Made by a program: the position numbers and the translations under genes. From a virus (taxonomy: Duplodnaviria > Heunggongvirae > Uroviricota > Caudoviricetes), in the IMG/VR virus record IMGVR_UViG_2778261646_000017, positions 1 to 16,102 of that record: a DNA stretch of 16,102 bases. One strand, given 5' to 3'. Below the pieces are notes generated by a model. The model searched no databases. It had not been told where the DNA came from and worked only from the letters and a program-made list of their open reading frames with translations. Below are positions 1 through 8,953 of this stretch, one piece after another. The first letter of the stretch is position 1; each line of letters starts with the position of its first letter.

Positions 1-1461
1 ATGAAAAAATTACTGCGTCTTTTTTTCCCGCTCTCGCTGCGGGTACGTTTTCTGTTGGCAACGGCAGCGGTAGTACTGGTGCTTTCGCTTGCCTACGGAA
101 TGGTCGCGCTGATCGGTTATAGCGTCAGTTTCGATAAAACTACGTTTCGGCTGTTACGTGGCGAGAGCAATCTGTTCTATACCCTTGCGAAGTGGGAAAA
201 CAATAAGTTGCATGTCGAGTTACCCGAAAATATCGACAAGCAAAGCCCCACCATGACGCTAATTTATGATGAGAACGGGCAGCTTTTATGGGCGCAACGT
301 GACGTGCCCTGGCTGATGAAGATGATCCAGCCTGACTGGCTGAAATCGAATGGTTTTCATGAAATTGAAGCGGATGTTAACGATACCAGCCTCTTGCTGA
401 GTGGAGATCATTCGATACAGCAACAGTTGCAGGAAGTGCGGGAAGATGATGACGACGCGGAGATGACCCACTCGGTAGCGGTAAACGTCTACCCGGCAAC
501 ATCGCGGATGCCAAAGTTAACCATTGTGGTGGTGGATACCATTCCGGTGGAGCTAAAAAGTTCCTATATGGTCTGGAGCTGGTTTATCTATGTGCTCTCA
601 GCCAATCTGCTGTTAGTGATCCCGCTGCTGTGGGTCGCCGCCTGGTGGAGTTTACGCCCCATCGAAGCCCTGGCAAAAGAAGTCCGCGAACTGGAAGAAC
701 ATAACCGCGAATTGCTCAATCCTGCCACAACGCGAGAACTGACCAGTCTGGTACGAAACCTGAACCGACTGTTAAAAAGTGAACGCGAACGTTACGACAA
801 ATATCGTACGACGCTCACCGACCTGACCCATAGTCTGAAAACGCCACTGGCGGTGCTGCAAAGTACGCTGCGTTCTCTGCGTAGTGAGAAGATGAGCGTC
901 AGTGATGCTGAGCCGGTAATGCTGGAGCAAATCAGCCGCATTTCACAGCAAATTGGCTACTACCTGCATCGTGCCAGTATGCGCGGCGGGACATTGCTTA
1001 GCCGCGAGCTGCATCCGGTCGCCCCACTGTTGGACAATCTCACCTCGGCGCTGAACAAAGTGTATCAACGCAAAGGGGTCAATATCTCTCTCGATATTTC
1101 GCCAGAGATCAGCTTTGTTGGTGAGCAGAACGATTTTGTCGAGGTGATGGGCAATGTGCTGGATAATGCCTGTAAATATTGCCTCGAGTTTGTCGAAATT
1201 TCTGCAAGGCAAACCGACGAGCATCTCTATATTGTGGTCGAGGATGATGGCCCCGGTATTCCATTAAGCAAGCGAGAGGTCATTTTCGACCGTGGTCAAC
1301 GGGTTGATACTTTACGCCCTGGGCAAGGTGTGGGGCTGGCGGTAGCCCGCGAAATCACCGAGCAATATGAGGGTAAAATCGTCGCCGGAGAGAGCATGCT
1401 GGGCGGTGCGCGGATGGAGGTGATTTTTGGTCGCCAGCATTCTGCGCCGAAAGATGAATAA
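1..1461 (+). CDS. phoQ: Two-component sensor histidine kinase PhoQ (complete, 486 aa)
   Basis: 486-aa ORF starting [33 protein letters not shown]; periplasmic acidic patch [12 protein letters not shown] region, H-box [10 protein letters not shown], ATPase G-boxes DDGPGI and GQGVGL; recognised as E. coli PhoQ. Confidence 0.97.
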
Positions 1462-2612: not shown

Positions 2613-4274
2613 TTACACCCCGCTAAATTCTTCCAGTTTCTGGCGGTGGCTGTCGCTTATATCAAAAGCAAAATCCTCATGCTCTGCCTGAAATGTACCA
2701 AACGCCATCAGTGCCGCTACGCTCGGGTCTATCTTGTTCGGTGATTTTTTCTTGTTCGGCTTGATATTGGCGTTCGCGTCACTCTGCATCACGACGTTAC
2801 TCATCGACCAGGACAACACCGGATCGCCACGATGCACAATCACCCTGCGGTTAACAAAAACTTCGAACGATTTCGCCGCCGGACTGAATCTGAGGTAGGT
2901 TTGCGGGAACGGCTCCACCTCAAAGCCTGCCCCCTGTAATTGCGTTCTCAGGTGCGTGGCGTTCCACGTATCGAAGCCCACCCGCCTGATATTAAATTTC
3001 TCGGCGTCCTGCATGATGTCATCTCTGATCCGGTCGTAATCAATGCAGTCGCCAGGCGTTGTGCGTATCCAGCCCGCTTTAGCCCACTGGCGATAGACAG
3101 CGCGATTTTTATTGGCTGGGTTCTGTAGCTGGAACTCCGGCAGATAATGACGGGAAACCAGCATGATATTTTTACCGACCGGAAAGGCATAGCATACGCT
3201 GGAAATATCGCTGGTTGATGATAAGTCCAGCCCCGCGTAACACTCCTGACCGTGTAAATCTTCCTCCGTGAACGTTCCGGTACACTCAGCCCATGCACCA
3301 TTACCCATCCACGGGGTAGTCCCCTGACACCAGATATTAAATCGCTTTGTCATCATCTCCACCCACTGCGACGGAATACCCCGCGCTTTCTGGATGGTTG
3401 AGGCCAGTTTTTCACGATCCACGGAAACATCGATGTTAGGGTTAGCCTTTATCCACATCGCCGGATCATCAACCTCGTTTTCGTCGTCCAGTTCGTAAAT
3501 CAGTACAAAAATTGAATCGTTGACCTCTTCGCCGTCCAGGATCTGGCAGCAATAATCATAGTGCTGCTTACAGGCTGAAACGACGTTACTGCCCGATGTG
3601 GTAATGGCAAATAACAGCCCTTCGGGACGTGCGCCCATCCCCATATCAAGTGCGGAATAAACCCCGTTGTCTGGGTGCAGGTGATATTCATCCACAATGG
3701 CAAGACTCGGGTTTGTCCCCTCAATGGTTGCCGCTTTTGCTGCCAGTGGCTTTAACAGGCTGTTGGTTTTCGGGTGTATCACCTTATGCGCCTGAATATT
3801 CACCCGCCTGCGTAACGGTCGGGATAAAAGGCACATCTGACGCGCATCATCAAAGACGATCCGCGCCTGGTCACGGCTCACCGCTGCGGTGTAGATATCC
3901 TGCTGACCGTTCTCCATAATCAGAAACCAGTTAGCCAGAATCGCGGCGGTCGTGGATTTCGCATTTTTGCGCGGCACTTCGATAAAGGCGCTCGTGTATT
4001 TGCGCCGTCCGGTGGCCTTAACCTTAAAGCCGAGGATGCACGCAAAGGCGAACTGCTGCCACGGCTCCAGCTCAATGGGTCTGCCACGCATCGGTCCTTT
4101 TACGTGCGGGCACACCCTGGAAAAGGCAATAAACCGCTCCACAACCTCACGATCGAACGTGTAAAGGGGGCTTTTAAGGTCCGAAAAGTACCGTTTAACA
4201 GCCTGTTTTAACCGTTTACAGGCCGGAATTTTGCCCGTTTTTACGTCTTCTGCGTACTTATTCCAGGCGGTCAA
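2613..4274 (-). CDS. terL: Terminase large subunit (Terminase_1-type ATPase/nuclease), 553 aa
   Basis: N-terminus YAEDVKTGKIPACKRLKQAVKRYFSDL typical of TerL; Walker A VPRKNAKST; Walker B-like LAIVDEYH; apparent TTG start inside the TerS 3' end with AGAGGA SD (17-nt overlap with TerS). Confidence 0.93.
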   Translation of the reverse strand: MTAWNKYAEDVKTGKIPACKRLKQAVKRYFSDLKSPLYTFDREVVERFIAFSRVCPHVKGPMRGRPIELEPWQQFAFACILGFKVKATGRRKYTSAFIEVPRKNAKSTTAAILANWFLIMENGQQDIYTAAVSRDQARIVFDDARQMCLLSRPLRRRVNIQAHKVIHPKTNSLLKPLAAKAATIEGTNPSLAIVDEYHLHPDNGVYSALDMGMGARPEGLLFAITTSGSNVVSACKQHYDYCCQILDGEEVNDSIFVLIYELDDENEVDDPAMWIKANPNIDVSVDREKLASTIQKARGIPSQWVEMMTKRFNIWCQGTTPWMGNGAWAECTGTFTEEDLHGQECYAGLDLSSTSDISSVCYAFPVGKNIMLVSRHYLPEFQLQNPANKNRAVYRQWAKAGWIRTTPGDCIDYDRIRDDIMQDAEKFNIRRVGFDTWNATHLRTQLQGAGFEVEPFPQTYLRFSPAAKSFEVFVNRRVIVHRGDPVLSWSMSNVVMQSDANANIKPNKKKSPNKIDPSVAALMAFGTFQAEHEDFAFDISDSHRQKLEEFSGV

Positions 4275-4614
4275 GCTCGTCCTCTTCTTCTGTTTCCGGT
4301 GGATTTTTACGGCGGCTTATCGGGTCAAAACCGAGCAAGGAGGCCATTTTTATCATCACTCTTTCAGCGTCGGATTTTGCGCTTAATGCGGGGTTTCTGC
4401 TCTCGCCGCCCTGACTGTTAACAATGCTGAACCCGCGCGCCGCAAGGTCTGCAACGGCTTTCCGGTAAATGGAGTAGTTGACGCAATACAGTTCCAGATT
4501 GCTCCAGTCGGCGGGGGTCAGGTCTCCCCGTTCCGCAAGCTGCCGCGATTTTTCCCGCCACTGCTTCACGGCGATATCATCCAGGTAGGCGGGGGCTTTC
4601 GGTGGTCTTGCCAT
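4258..4614 (-). CDS. terS: Terminase small subunit, P27-family-like, 118 aa
   Basis: MARPPKAPAYLDDIAVKQWREKSRQLAERGDLTPADWSNLELYCVNYSIY...NPALSAKSDAERVMIKMASLLGFDP with acidic C-terminus; directly upstream of and overlapping TerL. Confidence 0.8.
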   Translation of the reverse strand: MARPPKAPAYLDDIAVKQWREKSRQLAERGDLTPADWSNLELYCVNYSIYRKAVADLAARGFSIVNSQGGESRNPALSAKSDAERVMIKMASLLGFDPISRRKNPPETEEEDELDRLE

Positions 4615-4665
4615 GCTTATTTTTCGTCAGATTATTTTTCAAAAAATTCCCGTGCATAAAAATTT

Positions 4666-4724
4666 GGGGAGGCGTTCGGTGCCCGGCGGGGTCGGGTTTG
4701 TCCTGAAAACGCCCCCCACCCCGT
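4666..4724. other. Putative cos (cohesive-end) site: GC-rich segment with partial dyad symmetry in the 288-bp HNH-TerS intergenic gap
   Basis: ggggaggcgttcggtgcccggcggggtcgggtttgtcctgaaaacgccccccacccc; it is the only long non-coding gap in an otherwise overlap-coupled operon; HK97-like cos phages place cos between the HNH gene and terS. Confidence 0.4.
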
Positions 4725-4902
4725 CATACAGCCTCATCAGCGATTGCGGAAACATTCCATAACCTCGCGGTCACGGTCGGTTAATCGCTTCGCTGTGATG
4801 CGTTCTGCGCGTCCTGACGCTTTATCTTTATGCCCTGTTTCCTGTGTCTTCCATGCGTCACGCTGCCTTATAAGTCCACGGATAAGGCGGTTTTGTTCCC
4901 GC

Positions 4903-5343
4903 TCATTCATCAGCGTCATACATCCAGTTATTGCGGTTAGCGGCCCGTTCTTCCTCTTCATGAAATCCACCTGCGGCACGCTTGCTTTTTGTTGCCGGAT
5001 CAAGCCATTTCGTTTTCTGGTTATGACACGCCTGGCACAATGGTTGATGGTTCCATTCGGGCCAGAAGAGAACATCATCACCGCCATTAATCGGGATAAT
5101 GTGATCCACCACCACGGCGGGCGTATATATCCCCTTCTCAAGGCATCGCACGCATAACGGGTTTTTACTCAGATACATGGCGCGGTATTTGTCCCACTGT
5201 CTGGAGTACCCACGCGCGCGGCGGTGTCCTCGTCTGGCATCCTCTGCACGCCATGCCGCCCGCCTGTGCTCCTCACACTTGCCGGACTTCACGCGCCTGT
5301 TACAGCCTGGTTCTGTGCATCGTCTTAATGGTTGCCACGGCAT
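4903..5343 (-). CDS. HNH endonuclease (packaging-associated), 146 aa
   Basis: Cys pairs CTEPGC...C and CVRC...C, HNH core VVDHIIPINGGDD...NHQPLCQACHNQKT; GGGGGTG SD; sits immediately upstream of the cos-like gap and terS. Confidence 0.88.
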   Translation of the reverse strand: MPWQPLRRCTEPGCNRRVKSGKCEEHRRAAWRAEDARRGHRRARGYSRQWDKYRAMYLSKNPLCVRCLEKGIYTPAVVVDHIIPINGGDDVLFWPEWNHQPLCQACHNQKTKWLDPATKSKRAAGGFHEEEERAANRNNWMYDADE

Positions 5344-5639
5344 CAGTACACCCCCACATCACGGTAAGCCGTCCAGAGCGCGCCAATCGTCATGGGTACG
5401 CGCGTTTTTGCGTTATCCGCTACCAGCTGGCGATTCTCGTACAGGTGAGCGATAAACATCATGCAGCCAATCTTTATGGCTGGCGTGAACTCCAGCCCGT
5501 CATCAAAGCGCCTGCCTATATGTATCTGGCACGCCTCAAGCGATGCGGCAATGTATCCGCTGATTAACTGGTCTTCCTCGTCGCCATCGATGCGGCAATG
5601 GAGTTTCACTTCTTCCAGGGTGATAAGTTCTTCTGTCAT
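5343..5639 (-). CDS. gp6-like head-tail connector protein, 98 aa
   Basis: N-terminal LITLEEVKLHCRIDGDEEDQLISGYIAASLEACQ matches the gp6-like connector signature; GAGGG SD; ATGA start-stop overlap with the upstream adaptor gene. Confidence 0.75.
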   Translation of the reverse strand: MTEELITLEEVKLHCRIDGDEEDQLISGYIAASLEACQIHIGRRFDDGLEFTPAIKIGCMMFIAHLYENRQLVADNAKTRVPMTIGALWTAYRDVGVY

Positions 5640-5974
5640 TTTTCCGCGCCCTCACGACAAAGAATTTCAAGGCGTGTCCTGGCGGCATCCGGCAGCGGCT
5701 GCCCGATGATATTCAGTACACGCCCCGCCAGCGGCCCCGTATTGACCTTTATCCGGCTGGTGGCGTTGATGTCCTTCCTGTAGCGTATCCATATCCTTAC
5801 CGTTCCAGTCGCCAGTTCTGCACCCGATGAAATGGCCTCCTTGCTGCTGATCATGTTCACGCTTGCCCAGAGTGTGTGACCGTCCACCCACGTTTCGAGT
5901 ATTTCGCCGGTTATATCCCTGGTCTGTTTCAGGGTCTGAATCGTTACCCTGTCACGCAGTCGCCCTATGTTCAT
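5636..5974 (-). CDS. Head-tail adaptor / head-closure (joining) protein, about 112 aa
   Basis: GRLRDRVTIQ...TGEILETW...LWASV...RIWIRYR pattern of the phage head-tail joining family; start chosen at ATG 5974, which forms an ATGA overlap with the portal stop (the ORF track's longer start at 6016 has no SD). Confidence 0.75.
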   Translation of the reverse strand: MNIGRLRDRVTIQTLKQTRDITGEILETWVDGHTLWASVNMISSKEAISSGAELATGTVRIWIRYRKDINATSRIKVNTGPLAGRVLNIIGQPLPDAARTRLEILCREGAEK

Positions 5975-7182
5975 TCCGGTTTTTCTCCCTCGCTGATTTT
6001 TACTTCCTGTTTCCATGCCTGGCTGAACTCATCACCACCATCACGCGGGGACAGCCCTTCACGTTCGCGGGCTTCGTTCGGGCACATAACGCCGGATTTG
6101 ATGCCGCGTTCATAGGTGGCAAAGCGTTCGCCAGGTGTGGCCCGTAACAGGTCCGCGCTGTCAAACTCCACCTGATACCGGATACCAGGTACAGGTGAGG
6201 CCACCAGCAGGGCGTTTTTTATCTGCTGCTCAAAGTTCGCCAGCCACGGGCGCATCGTCATGGTGAGAAATGCGCGGCTTGCCTCGCTGAAATTGCTGTA
6301 GGTGCTGTTGCTGTATTCCTGCAAAAAAATCGGCGAGACGTTGAACATTCGGGCGATGTCTTCAATGGTGAAGCGACGGGAGGCCAGCCATTCAGCATCC
6401 TGATTACTCATGCCCAGCTGCTGATAGCTCATACCCCCTTCAAGGATGGGCGTTTTTCCGGCGTTTCTGGCCCCTTTGTAGCGTTCCAGTGCGGCTAATG
6501 CCTGTTTGCCCTTCACGCCGTCCAGCCATTCGCCTGACGTGATAACCCCTGCCGCCATCATGCCATCACGCATCACGCTCGCGCCGTGGCGTTGTTGGGC
6601 CAGCCCAAGCCCCAGCGATTCGCGGCAGATGGTTACAGGTGAGCGCCCCATAAAACCGTCATCCGTGGAGTAACGAAGGTGGAGAACCTCCCACGGTAAA
6701 TAGTTGCGGGTGTTTCCGGTGTAGGCGTCAGTGATGCAGTAGCGCCAGTTATGCTCACCTGTCTGCTCCACGTTCACCGACTGCGGCGGGTAAGGATGTA
6801 AAGCCACCGGAAAACCATCACGCCCCCACCGAATCACCGCATAAGCATTACCGTTTAACAGGCAGTGGCGGATCATCATTCGCTTAAACTGGTAGGGGGT
6901 TTGCCACGCGTTCGGGCGCTCGTTGAGGATGTGATCGACCGGATGAGAATCAAGCCACTCGCGGGCCTCCTTCCCCTTCTCATTGCGTACCAGGTACAGG
7001 TAACACGGCATGGTAGCCACCGCCTCAGAGATGACCGTCACGGCGTTCATGACGGCGGGCAGTGATTCCGCTGTCCCCGATGATACGTACTCACCCGCCC
7101 CCGTGTTCGATGTGCCGGCCAGCGCCATAAACTCATCAAGCGTCATGCTGCGCTGCTCTTTTTTTCTTCTGAAAGGCCACAT
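5971..7182 (-). CDS. Portal protein (HK97-family-like), 403 aa
   Basis: 403-aa ORF between protease and adaptor with portal-like features (…FNVSPIFLQEYSNSTYSNFSEASRAFLTMTMRPW…); GGGGGTG SD; start 1 nt after the protease stop. Confidence 0.9.
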   Translation of the reverse strand: MWPFRRKKEQRSMTLDEFMALAGTSNTGAGEYVSSGTAESLPAVMNAVTVISEAVATMPCYLYLVRNEKGKEAREWLDSHPVDHILNERPNAWQTPYQFKRMMIRHCLLNGNAYAVIRWGRDGFPVALHPYPPQSVNVEQTGEHNWRYCITDAYTGNTRNYLPWEVLHLRYSTDDGFMGRSPVTICRESLGLGLAQQRHGASVMRDGMMAAGVITSGEWLDGVKGKQALAALERYKGARNAGKTPILEGGMSYQQLGMSNQDAEWLASRRFTIEDIARMFNVSPIFLQEYSNSTYSNFSEASRAFLTMTMRPWLANFEQQIKNALLVASPVPGIRYQVEFDSADLLRATPGERFATYERGIKSGVMCPNEAREREGLSPRDGGDEFSQAWKQEVKISEGEKPE

Positions 7183-7183
7183 A

Positions 7184-7741
7184 TCACACCCCCGCTAAAT
7201 CCGCCCACCAGCGGCGATTATCCGCACGCGGCATTTTTTCGGGGTGCTGCTCGTACAGGGAGCGGCGGGCCAGCTCCACGCCAGAATCAGGGTAAGCCGG
7301 TACGGATGTAACGGTAATTTCGTACAGTTCCGCCACCAGCACGGTGCGCACGCATGGATCTGTTGTGGTATCCCATACATCCTTACGGGAGCGAAAGCCA
7401 AAGCTCATGCCGGATATATCACCTCGTTTAACCAGTTCGATAACGTCCCGCCCTGTACTGGTATCCGGTGGGGTCAGTTCAAAGCGTAACCCTGTGTCGT
7501 CCTCTTCCAGTTTCAGCGTGCCGGAACGGGTGCGCCCCAGTAACATGCTGTGGTCATGCTCATACAGGCCGCGAACGTCATTACCCGCTGCAAGCCATTC
7601 AGTAAACGCTCCCCGCTGGAATTTTTCGTAAAACTCCCCCCATAGCAGCTCTGAAAGGTTATCCCAGCGAACAACGTAGCCTGTAAGCGTGTTGCTGGCG
7701 CTGGTGGTGATTTCCGATGACCGGATTTCCATACTCTTCAT
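7184..7741 (-). CDS. Prohead maturation protease (HK97-family-like), about 185 aa
   Basis: MKSMEIRSSEITT...GYVVRWDNLSE...DHS..LLGRTRSGTL...GDISGMSFGF motifs; start placed at ATG 7741 (GGTGA SD) because the longer start at 7756 lies directly on the tail of the upstream terminator. Confidence 0.85.
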   Translation of the reverse strand: MKSMEIRSSEITTSASNTLTGYVVRWDNLSELLWGEFYEKFQRGAFTEWLAAGNDVRGLYEHDHSMLLGRTRSGTLKLEEDDTGLRFELTPPDTSTGRDVIELVKRGDISGMSFGFRSRKDVWDTTTDPCVRTVLVAELYEITVTSVPAYPDSGVELARRSLYEQHPEKMPRADNRRWWADLAGV

Positions 7742-7756
7742 AATTTTTTCACCCAT

Positions 7757-7795: not shown

Positions 7796-8953
7796 TTAAT
7801 CGTCGTCCTGTGGCAGTTCCAGAATCTTGATCGCGTTCGAATCCACCACGCCACCGCCTAAATATTTCTGCGTGAAAATTTTGATGAAGCCCGGCTCTGT
7901 GAGGTTGTCCGGTCTGGTGCGAACACCTGTTTCGTGATCAACAATGTAGTAACCGCGTTTGAAGTCACCCAGGGCAATAACGTTATCAGGCATAAACTCC
8001 AGATATTCGACCGGAAGGCCCAGCAACGTATCAGGATCACCCGCCTGTAAACGGTCGCGCCAGATGTAATCACCGTTCGCGTTCTTCACCTTCTGAAGTT
8101 TTGCGGCCGTCGTGGAGTTAACCACCCAGACCGCGTTTTTGCGATATTTTTTATGTAATGCAAATTTCAGGTCGATCAGCGGGTCCGCAGATGTCCACGC
8201 CAGAGATTCGGAAGGTTTAATTACCTGTAACGTACCAAAATCACGCTCTTTGTCGTTCTTCTCTGCACGGGGTACGGATAAAAAGCCTTTTGCTTTTTTG
8301 TCACCGTCGCCCACAACCAGATCGCTTTCTTCGGTTTCCGTGAAGGTGTCGCCAATCTCACCCGTCAGCCATGAAAGGATGTCCACATCGGAAAAATCCA
8401 CGATTTCCTGTGTGGTGCGCGGGTACGCATAGACCGGATACAGCTTAATGCTCACCTCGTTAATCTGCGGGGTGCTGGTCTGTTCGCGTGCCTTACCCTC
8501 TTCACCGTGGTTAACGGTCGCACCGCCAGCGGAAACAAGCTGCTTAAACTCGTTGCTGCTGATTTTCTTCACGGTACAGATGCGGCGCATGGTGGATTCA
8601 TCCGCCAGCATTCGCATGATTTCGGTGTTCAGCTCGGGGATAACGGTATAACCACCATCAGCGGGAACGCCTGTACTTAATGCGCGGGTTTCACCTGTCA
8701 GGATGTAGTTTCGTAGTTCTGCGGGGTCAGTGGTCTGACTGCTTTTACCTGGCTTGCTGCGCTCTTCGTCTGCAATGGCTTCAAGGCGGGAAATGTCTTT
8801 ATCGAGGGATTCAGCTTTAGCGCGTAATTCGTCAAATTTTGCGCCCTCAGCATCGTTAAGACTGCGGTTTTCTTTTTCCGCGTTCTCCAGCATGTCGCGC
8901 ATCTGATTTTTAATGGCGGTTTTCTGCTGGCGTAATTCGATTATTCTCGGCAT
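7796..8953 (-). CDS. Major capsid protein, HK97-fold with N-terminal coiled-coil scaffold (delta) domain, 385 aa
   Basis: N-terminal 60 aa heptad-rich (LRQQKTAIKNQMRDMLENAEKENRSLNDAEGAKFDELRAKAESLDKDISRLEA); C-terminal body with capsid-like features (…GYYIVDHETGV…); followed by a terminator. Confidence 0.93.
   Translation of the reverse strand: MPRIIELRQQKTAIKNQMRDMLENAEKENRSLNDAEGAKFDELRAKAESLDKDISRLEAIADEERSKPGKSSQTTDPAELRNYILTGETRALSTGVPADGGYTVIPELNTEIMRMLADESTMRRICTVKKISSNEFKQLVSAGGATVNHGEEGKAREQTSTPQINEVSIKLYPVYAYPRTTQEIVDFSDVDILSWLTGEIGDTFTETEESDLVVGDGDKKAKGFLSVPRAEKNDKERDFGTLQVIKPSESLAWTSADPLIDLKFALHKKYRKNAVWVVNSTTAAKLQKVKNANGDYIWRDRLQAGDPDTLLGLPVEYLEFMPDNVIALGDFKRGYYIVDHETGVRTRPDNLTEPGFIKIFTQKYLGGGVVDSNAIKILELPQDDD

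Follow-up and report, generated by a model that had tools for sequence, protein, structure and literature searches.

A probable SfV/HK97-type cos site upstream of the small terminase gene in an EcCIEDL933-like capsid-forming phage satellite

Introduction

Capsid-forming PICIs (cf-PICIs) stand out among phage satellites in that they package only their own DNA into self-made capsids and borrow nothing but the tails of phages; packaging that is mutually exclusive with that of the helper phage has been described for them in the literature. Neither cf-PICIs nor HNH-dependent cos sites are new, and published work already presumes that cf-PICIs use cos packaging. Packaged DNA of one such element, KpCIDSM30104, forms concatemers via cohesive ends (He et al. 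2025).

Several cos systems offer themselves for comparison. Run-off sequencing of SfI virion DNA identified the cohesive end as a 10-nt gap, 5'-TGCCCGCCCC-3' (PMC3636060), which we read as a 3' overhang because the run-off reads leave a gap and not an overlap. In HK97, the cohesive ends are 3' overhangs of 10 nt, the region +15 to +29 is bound by TerS, and cleavage is stimulated by the HNH protein gp74 (PMC11331095, PMC9410871); the sequence bound by HK97 TerS, CTAACCCGATTTTTT, consists of a G plus an A-tract (PMC11331095). Lambda (cosQ-cosN-cosB) and P2 also have a multipartite site just upstream of terS but differ in their 12- and 19-nt 5' overhangs, in their symmetric nick sites, and in the lack of an HNH partner. 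Further cos systems are those of the HNH-dependent staphylococcal phages phi12 and phiSLT, and cos-dependent satellite transfer, as in cf-PICIs, is known from SaPIbov5 and from the E. coli PICI EcCICFT073 with Rpp. SaPIbov5 and EcCICFT073 copy the helper cos or retarget the helper TerS via Rpp, whereas the element studied here brings its own TerS, TerL, HNH protein, and a putative cos unlike that of the helper. In these staphylococcal phages, cos reportedly lies between hnh and terS.

Here we analyzed a stretch of 16,102 nt (hereafter the window) and propose a location for the cos site of the cf-PICI that it contains. Our literature search, for which many subscription papers were beyond reach, returned no paper mapping a cf-PICI cos or the ends of an E. 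coli cf-PICI; the site itself is very probably an ordinary and expected cos of the SfV/HK97 type, and what is newly proposed is its location.

Genomic context of the satellite

Judged by its gene content, the window is an EcCIEDL933-like cf-PICI that adjoins phoQ and carries its packaging genes on the minus strand. Pfam matches were found for the capsid, protease, portal, connector, HNH, terS, and terL genes, while the ORF list was the sole source for the integrase and for the lack of tail genes. The order of the genes is that described for Proteobacterial cf-PICIs, of which EcCIEDL933 is the prototype. The packaging genes are the following:

7796–8953, minus strand: capsid gene (Pfam/ORF list)
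7184–7756, minus strand: prohead protease gene (Pfam/ORF list)
5971–7182, minus strand: portal gene (Pfam/ORF list)
5636–6016, minus strand: head completion gene (Pfam/ORF list)
5343–5639, minus strand: connector gene (Pfam/ORF list)
4903–5343, minus strand: gene of the HNH endonuclease, the packaging partner of the terminase (Pfam HNH, E 1.7e-8; phrog_144)
4258–4614, minus strand: terS, P27/Terminase_4 family (Pfam, E 1.3e-23; phrog_83)
2613–4274, minus strand: terL (Pfam TerL_ATPase and TerL_nuclease)

The HNH protein is homologous to gp74 of HK97 (39% identity, E 3e-19) and to orf53 of SfV (37%, E 6e-17). TerS of the element is 36% identical to that of SfV (E 4e-21) and falls into the same family (phrog_83) as the TerS proteins of SfV, SfI, and ST64B; sequence similarity to HK97 gp1 was not detectable. 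SfV TerS has an annotated N-terminal extension of ~46 aa that TerS of the cf-PICI is without. The closest TerL proteins of true phages, phi105 among them, are ~35% identical to that of the element.

The stretch from the HNH gene to terS has 100% identity with E. coli N32 and 98.3% with "prophage Sp7" of E. coli O157:H7 Sakai, which we take to be EcCIEDL933. Of 5426 complete E. coli genomes, 515 contain homologues of this stretch. A plus-strand ORF at the left edge of the window (1–1461) is phoQ, so in E. coli N32 the island sits directly beside the phoPQ operon. The DNA that separates phoQ from the last ORFs of the island carries an array of ~48-nt units (1896–2334), with related copies at 1297–1309 and 1489–1501; in every unit, a match to the IHF consensus WATCAANNNNTTR comes after a short hairpin of variable sequence. 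Most matches to this consensus in the window, including all seven exact ones, cluster in 1297–2320. The array could represent an att-arm or IHF array, or else a chromosomal repeat element.

The interval between the HNH and terS genes

In the preliminary description, the 288 bases between the HNH and terS genes had been regarded as a non-coding gap and as the only sizeable interval within the packaging operon. The latter holds for the gene string from capsid to terL, in which all other junctions are at most 39 nt long or overlapping, and the length of 288 bases is likewise correct, but ~60% of the interval is coding. The coding part is occupied by one gene:

4737–4919, minus strand: small conserved gene encoding 60 aa, arginine-rich, with an alternative start at 4910 (PGAP WP_000174068.1; phrog_3173)

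The ORF matches phrog_3173 with an E-value of 7.5e-37 over 57 of 57 profile positions and overlaps the stop of the HNH gene; a Pfam search of the 60-aa product returned no match. Although the DNA of the region is only 34% identical, ~20 of 31 related elements retain the amino-acid motif of this product (...ERDRE..ECFRNR*). The annotation of the Sakai genome skips the small gene, its locus tags passing from ECs_1595 to ECs_1597. Among the 31 loci compared, the phrog_3173 gene is absent in Xenorhabdus, Aeromonas, and some others, and where present (~20 of the 31) it usually stops 15 nt before a conserved run of G. Because 4737–4919 is coding, the true non-coding gap comprises 122 bp (4615–4736). 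GC content within the interval is strongly uneven, with 73% in 4666–4724 vs. 25% in 4615–4665.

Conservation across enterobacterial elements

Scanning one genome per species, we recovered 33 loci with TerS identities of 68–100% from Klebsiella, Citrobacter, Enterobacter, Serratia, Erwinia, Pantoea, Xenorhabdus, Pectobacterium, Aeromonas, and others. The 120–135 nt upstream of terS were aligned for 31 of the 33 sequences, spanning ~20 enterobacterial genera plus Aeromonas. Mean pairwise identity along this alignment delimits the following segments:

4697–4722, minus strand: G-run block GGGGTGGGGGGCGTTTTCAGGACAAA (GGGGTGGGGGAGGTTTTCAGGACAAA), mean pairwise identity 0.76 across 31 elements
4684–4696, minus strand: variable spacer of 13 nt, mean pairwise identity 0.39
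4632–4683, minus strand: putative cos core (GGCACCRCCCGCCCCCTCAAATTTTTACGCACGGTGATTTTTTTGAAAATAAAAC), mean pairwise identity 0.83
4615–4631, minus strand: poorly conserved terS leader and ribosome-binding region, mean pairwise identity 0.50

The core is made up of a C-rich region, in which the nick is predicted (see below), a run of five T (4658–4662), the motif GCACGGG, and an A/T tract (ATTTTTTGAAAAATAA). For comparison, terS itself has a mean pairwise identity of 0.86 at codon positions 1 and 2 and of 0.53 at position 3, and neighboring non-coding DNA is 37–50% identical. The identities of the two blocks come close to that of codon positions 1 and 2 of terS, so that selection on these non-coding stretches is about as strong as on coding positions. 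Across genera, the pattern of identities indicates strong purifying selection on both blocks. Among near-identical E. coli elements (IMG/VR loci L047–L126), the poly-G tract of the G-run block (window 4708–4718) varies from five to eight G after GGGGT, which reflects either homopolymer slippage or sequencing noise.

Alignment with mapped cos sites

In SfV, SfI, ST64B, HK97, and HK106, the HNH gene directly precedes cos and terS. The conserved blocks of the cf-PICI occupy the corresponding place, with the HNH gene ahead of them and terS following on the same strand; the extra small gene (phrog_3173) separates the HNH gene from the candidate cos. A blastn search with the gap against the phage collection matched two satellite-like records only and missed SfV and HK97, hence a profile search was needed. 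With nhmmer, the profile HMM of the cf-PICI alignment matched the HNH–terS junctions of ST64B (E 7e-4), HK97 (1.1), SfV (5.7), and SfI (8.5) in one and the same register, these E-values being calculated with Z set to 1 Mb for an actual search space of 5 kb. The weak matches to SfV and SfI (E 5.7–8.5 at 1 Mb) are persuasive only due to their position, register, and spacing. Elsewhere in the window, whose own sequence is part of the profile, nothing significant was found.

The overhang end of SfI and the left end of the HK97 record fall on the same profile position; both phages have cos ends that were mapped by experiment. Since these ends align there, we place the predicted overhang of the cf-PICI at 4669–4678 and its first packaged base at 4668. 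Written in the sense of terS, with a slash at the cut, the junctions read as follows:

SfI: GGGGAGGGGCGGG-N31-TGCCCGCCCC/GTCGTTTTTTTATACCCGCGAAAAATGAAATTT...ATG
cf-PICI: GGGGTGGGGGGCG-N31-CGAACGCCTC/CCCAAATTTTTATGCACGGGAATTTTTTGAAAAAT...ATG
HK97/HK106: GGGCAGGGGGGGGG-N32-CGCCGCCAAA/GTTTGAATTTAACGCTAACCCGATTTTTTTAG...ATG

The agreement is closest with the cos of SfI, SfV, SfII, SfIV, and ST64B, which share the TerS family phrog_83 (36% identity) and the HNH gene upstream of cos with the cf-PICI. The order of elements is the same in both, i.e., G-run, 31 nt, a C-rich overhang of 10 nt, T-run,.C.CG.G motif, A/T tract, and terS. The core of the SfI type aligns without gaps and agrees with the family consensus at 20 of 27 positions (manual count), and the profile search arrives at the same register. 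From the start of the G-run to the cut, the distance is 54 nt in the cf-PICI and 54 nt in SfI, compared with 56 nt in HK97; from the cut to the ATG of terS it is 54, 50, and 49 nt, respectively. The overhangs differ (TGCCCGCCCC in the SfI type vs. CGAACGCCTC in the cf-PICI), and the cf-PICI is unlike the SfI-type phages in having a phrog_3173 gene between HNH gene and cos and in being a 15-kb satellite devoid of tail genes.

HK97 and HK106 likewise have a homologous HNH protein (39%), a cos between the HNH gene and terS, a G-run ~55 nt before the cut, a cut ~50 nt before the ATG of terS, and, at about +20 to +29, an A-tract preceded by a G. They differ from the cf-PICI in their TerS family (phrog_5601), nick region (CGCCGCCAAA), and TerS site (CTAACCCGATTTTTT). 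Comparable G-runs thus occur at the same distance from the cut in SfI, SfV, and ST64B (GGGGAGGGGCGGG) and in HK97 and HK106 (GGGCAGGGGGGGGG).

Taken together, these features make it very likely that the 122-bp interval 4615–4736 holds an HNH-dependent cos of the SfV/HK97 type that belongs to the cf-PICI, and we are equally confident that cos lies at 4632–4722. Two functional parts are predicted within the core:

4669–4678, terS-sense (minus) strand: predicted 10-nt cohesive end (3' overhang) CGAACGCCTC, by homology to the SfI and HK97 ends
4632–4655, minus strand: predicted TerS site (cosB-like), GCACGGGAATTTTTTG plus A-tract, at roughly +14 to +37 relative to the predicted cut

The nicks are accordingly expected between 4669 and 4668 on the terS-sense strand and between 4679 and 4678 on the other strand. 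The nicks are placed to the base by homology, and the 3' polarity of the overhang and the assignment of a protein to each block are likewise inferred. The predicted overhang differs among lineages (CGAACGCCTC, CGACCGCCTC, CGACCGCCCC, and CGCCCGCCCC), so that the exact nick could be off by a few bases, and an overhang of exactly 4669–4678 is on balance the favored placement. TerS is predicted to bind at ~4632–4655 by an analogy that leans on HK97, whose TerS has no detectable sequence kinship with that of the element; SfI and ST64B carry TTTTTATACCCGCGAAAAAT at the offset of the predicted site.

Symmetry and transcription signals

A GC-rich segment with partial twofold symmetry, reminiscent of the cosN of lambda and P2, had been noted in the preliminary description. 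The segment (4666–4724) is GC-rich as reported, and it contains two real 10-nt inverted-repeat pairs, each matching at 9 of 10 positions (4667–4676 with 4708–4717 and 4687–4696 with 4714–4723). Two such repeats are marginally unusual by chance (P ~0.02–0.05 in mononucleotide shuffles). The symmetry is, however, weak, does not covary, and lies off the predicted cut, and the likeness to lambda and P2 gives way to a match with SfV/HK97-type cos sites and their 10-nt 3' overhangs. It is nevertheless conceivable that cos lies here and that a staggered cut is centered on the inverted repeat at ~4690–4700, as in lambda cosN, and the two 9/10 repeats with a shuffling P of ~0.02 would agree with such a site. 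Yet the center of symmetry (~4692–4695) falls into the variable patch, the least conserved of all (identity 0.39), the arms do not covary, and the ends of SfI and HK97 align with the C-rich arm, in which the predicted cut is located. We consider a cut centered on the symmetry very unlikely, although ~4690–4699 still falls within the edge of the 69-nt hole described below. The interval 4615–4736 also has no IHF consensus WATCAANNNNTTR, even with one mismatch allowed, whereas lambda cosB has IHF sites.

Pairing of the G-run with the C-run could alternatively act on the transcript, as a terminator or attenuator or in the translational control of terS and terL. On the coding strand, GGGGGGCGUU can indeed pair with AACGCCUCCC, followed by the U-run AAAUUUUUA, with a minimum free energy of −31.3 kcal/mol, but this energy is at the level of shuffled sequences, the 86-nt segment folding no better than its dinucleotide shuffles (z = −0.76 as RNA and +0.07 as DNA). 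A combination of stable GC-rich hairpin and U-run, as in intrinsic terminators, is thus not what the segment presents. A promoter and terminator scan of the coding strand from 4400 to 5100 was empty, as was an Rfam search. RNAalifold found no compensatory change in any of the eight consensus G-run/C-run pairs among 31 homologues, and in E. coli variants a change in one arm is unmatched in the other. Control of transcription or translation by such a hairpin would moreover account neither for the alignment with mapped cos ends nor for the gap in a contig obtained from particles (see below), and it appears very improbable.

With z-scores near zero and no compensatory change, we also rejected a conserved hairpin or cruciform formed by G-run and C-run. 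A small variable palindrome just before the nick was discarded as well, its mean best stem being 3.1 vs. 2.8 in shuffles. Conservation applies to the sequences of the G-run, the C-rich nick region, and the A/T tracts, and not to their complementarity.

Particle-derived sequences

The only sizeable match to the gap in the phage collection is LR881103 ("Escherichia phage vB_KppS-Ant", 16,548 bp), and the match stops at the very end of that record. vB_KppS-Ant was sequenced with Nextera XT from particle DNA of a lysate on K. pneumoniae DSM 30104; its authors reported >99% identity to the host genome and called it a filamentous ssDNA phage of a novel genus (PMC8006926), with MF417951 as its closest relative (Townsend et al.). 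In LR881103, the gene that follows terL bears the annotation 'tail length tape measure protein', a surprise in an element described as having no tail genes.

Compared with the corresponding locus of K. pneumoniae ATCC 13883, vB_KppS-Ant shows 100% identity across 1000 nt to either side of cos, except that it is without exactly 69 nt, GAACACGAGGGCGCCAGGCAC-CACCCGCCCC-CTCAAATTTTTTCGCACGGTGATTTTTTTGAAAATAAA. ATCC 13883 and DSM 30104 are presumably the same type strain. We therefore take the ATCC 13883 locus (L015) as the KpCIDSM30104 of He et al., and vB_KppS-Ant is identical over these flanks to the cf-PICI of its own propagation host. Of the missing nucleotides, 21 + 10 lie on the right side of the predicted cut and 38 on its left side. 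The predicted overhang is inside the hole, 21 nt away from one end of the contig and 38 nt away from the other, and the stretch at about 4690–4699 is at the right-hand edge of the hole. Tagmentation libraries lose a few tens of terminal bases from linear molecules. A permuted genome or an arbitrarily opened circle would lose nothing. The 69-nt hole supports a cos site here, although it could in principle be an artefact of assembly or trimming.

A second lysate-derived record, PQ569648, contains a cf-PICI segment that extends from codon 2 of terS to the small ORF and omits the whole cos interval. This record (PQ569648.1, 'Klebsiella phage P12620-1, complete genome', 106.5 kb) consists of a cf-PICI in its last ~16 kb (L127–L129), which abuts unrelated DNA at codon 2 of terS and has its other end at or inside the small ORF; it looks like a chimeric assembly. 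Among the 120 IMG/VR entries listed, most of which are prophage predictions from isolate genomes, no contig starts or ends at the predicted cut, an absence that carries little weight given this origin.

Headful packaging from a pac site in the interval, yielding permuted and terminally redundant DNA, seems to us very unlikely as well, for although a TerS recognition site beside terS is also typical of pac phages, an HNH gene adjoining terS is reported to be the hallmark of HK97-type cos systems (Kala 2014), the core aligns with mapped cos ends, the packaged cf-PICI DNA described by He et al. 2025 forms concatemers via cohesive ends, and assembly of permuted DNA would close the circle and leave no 69-nt hole.

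Packaging model and specificity

For an SfV/HK97-type cos at this location, packaging could proceed as follows. TerS of the element would bind the GCACGG and A-tract region just inside the left end (T-run to A-tract, 4668–4632), and TerL together with the HNH protein would make a staggered cut in the C-rich region, leaving a 10-nt 3' overhang at 4678–4669. Packaging would then start at ~4668 and run through terS and terL and round the element until another cos is reached in the concatemer. As part of the right end of the virion DNA, the G-run block would be the last to enter the capsid.

The G-run block is a candidate for a cosQ-like element of the HNH protein or TerL, comparable with the upstream element of the multipartite lambda site. 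G-runs are common to systems with unrelated TerS families but homologous HNH proteins, and may therefore be a signal for HNH and TerL rather than for TerS. The phrog_3173 protein is encoded right against the G-run block. It is tempting, but rather speculative, to extend this to a scheme in which the G-run ~55 nt before the cut serves as a cosQ-like docking or termination signal for HNH and TerL, the TerS site and the nick sequence alone set satellite-versus-helper specificity, and the phrog_3173 protein possibly binds cos as an accessory factor.

HK106 is the helper phage of EcCIEDL933, and its cos is identical to that of HK97 in the stretch compared. Sequence similarity between the TerS proteins of HK106 (phrog_5601) and the element (phrog_83) was not detectable. 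Given the different nick sequence, TerS site, and TerS family in HK106, each terminase would be expected to package its own DNA only. These differences likely form the basis of mutually exclusive packaging, and, at the level of sequence comparison, cos and TerS of HK106 fit exclusive self-packaging by the satellite. The earlier proposal of an element-specific cos between the HNH and terS genes is thus supported by the conservation of the blocks, by the alignment with known cos sites in a single register, by the 69-nt hole, and by the differing site of HK106.

The cos anatomy proposed here, with a predicted nick at 4669–4678, a predicted TerS site at ~4632–4655, and the G-run at 4697–4722, offers a handle on the mutual exclusion of satellite and helper and should be useful for cos-plasmids packaged by cf-PICI capsids. 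It also helps to spot defective elements, such as a copy in Shigella flexneri SFBU1023 (L014, CP182556.1) from which cos has been deleted. This copy, otherwise near-identical, has a 97-nt deletion between CCCCGCC direct repeats, equivalent to window 4588–4684, that takes away the predicted nick site, the predicted TerS site, and the first seven codons of terS. Having lost cos and the start of terS, it should be unable to package itself.
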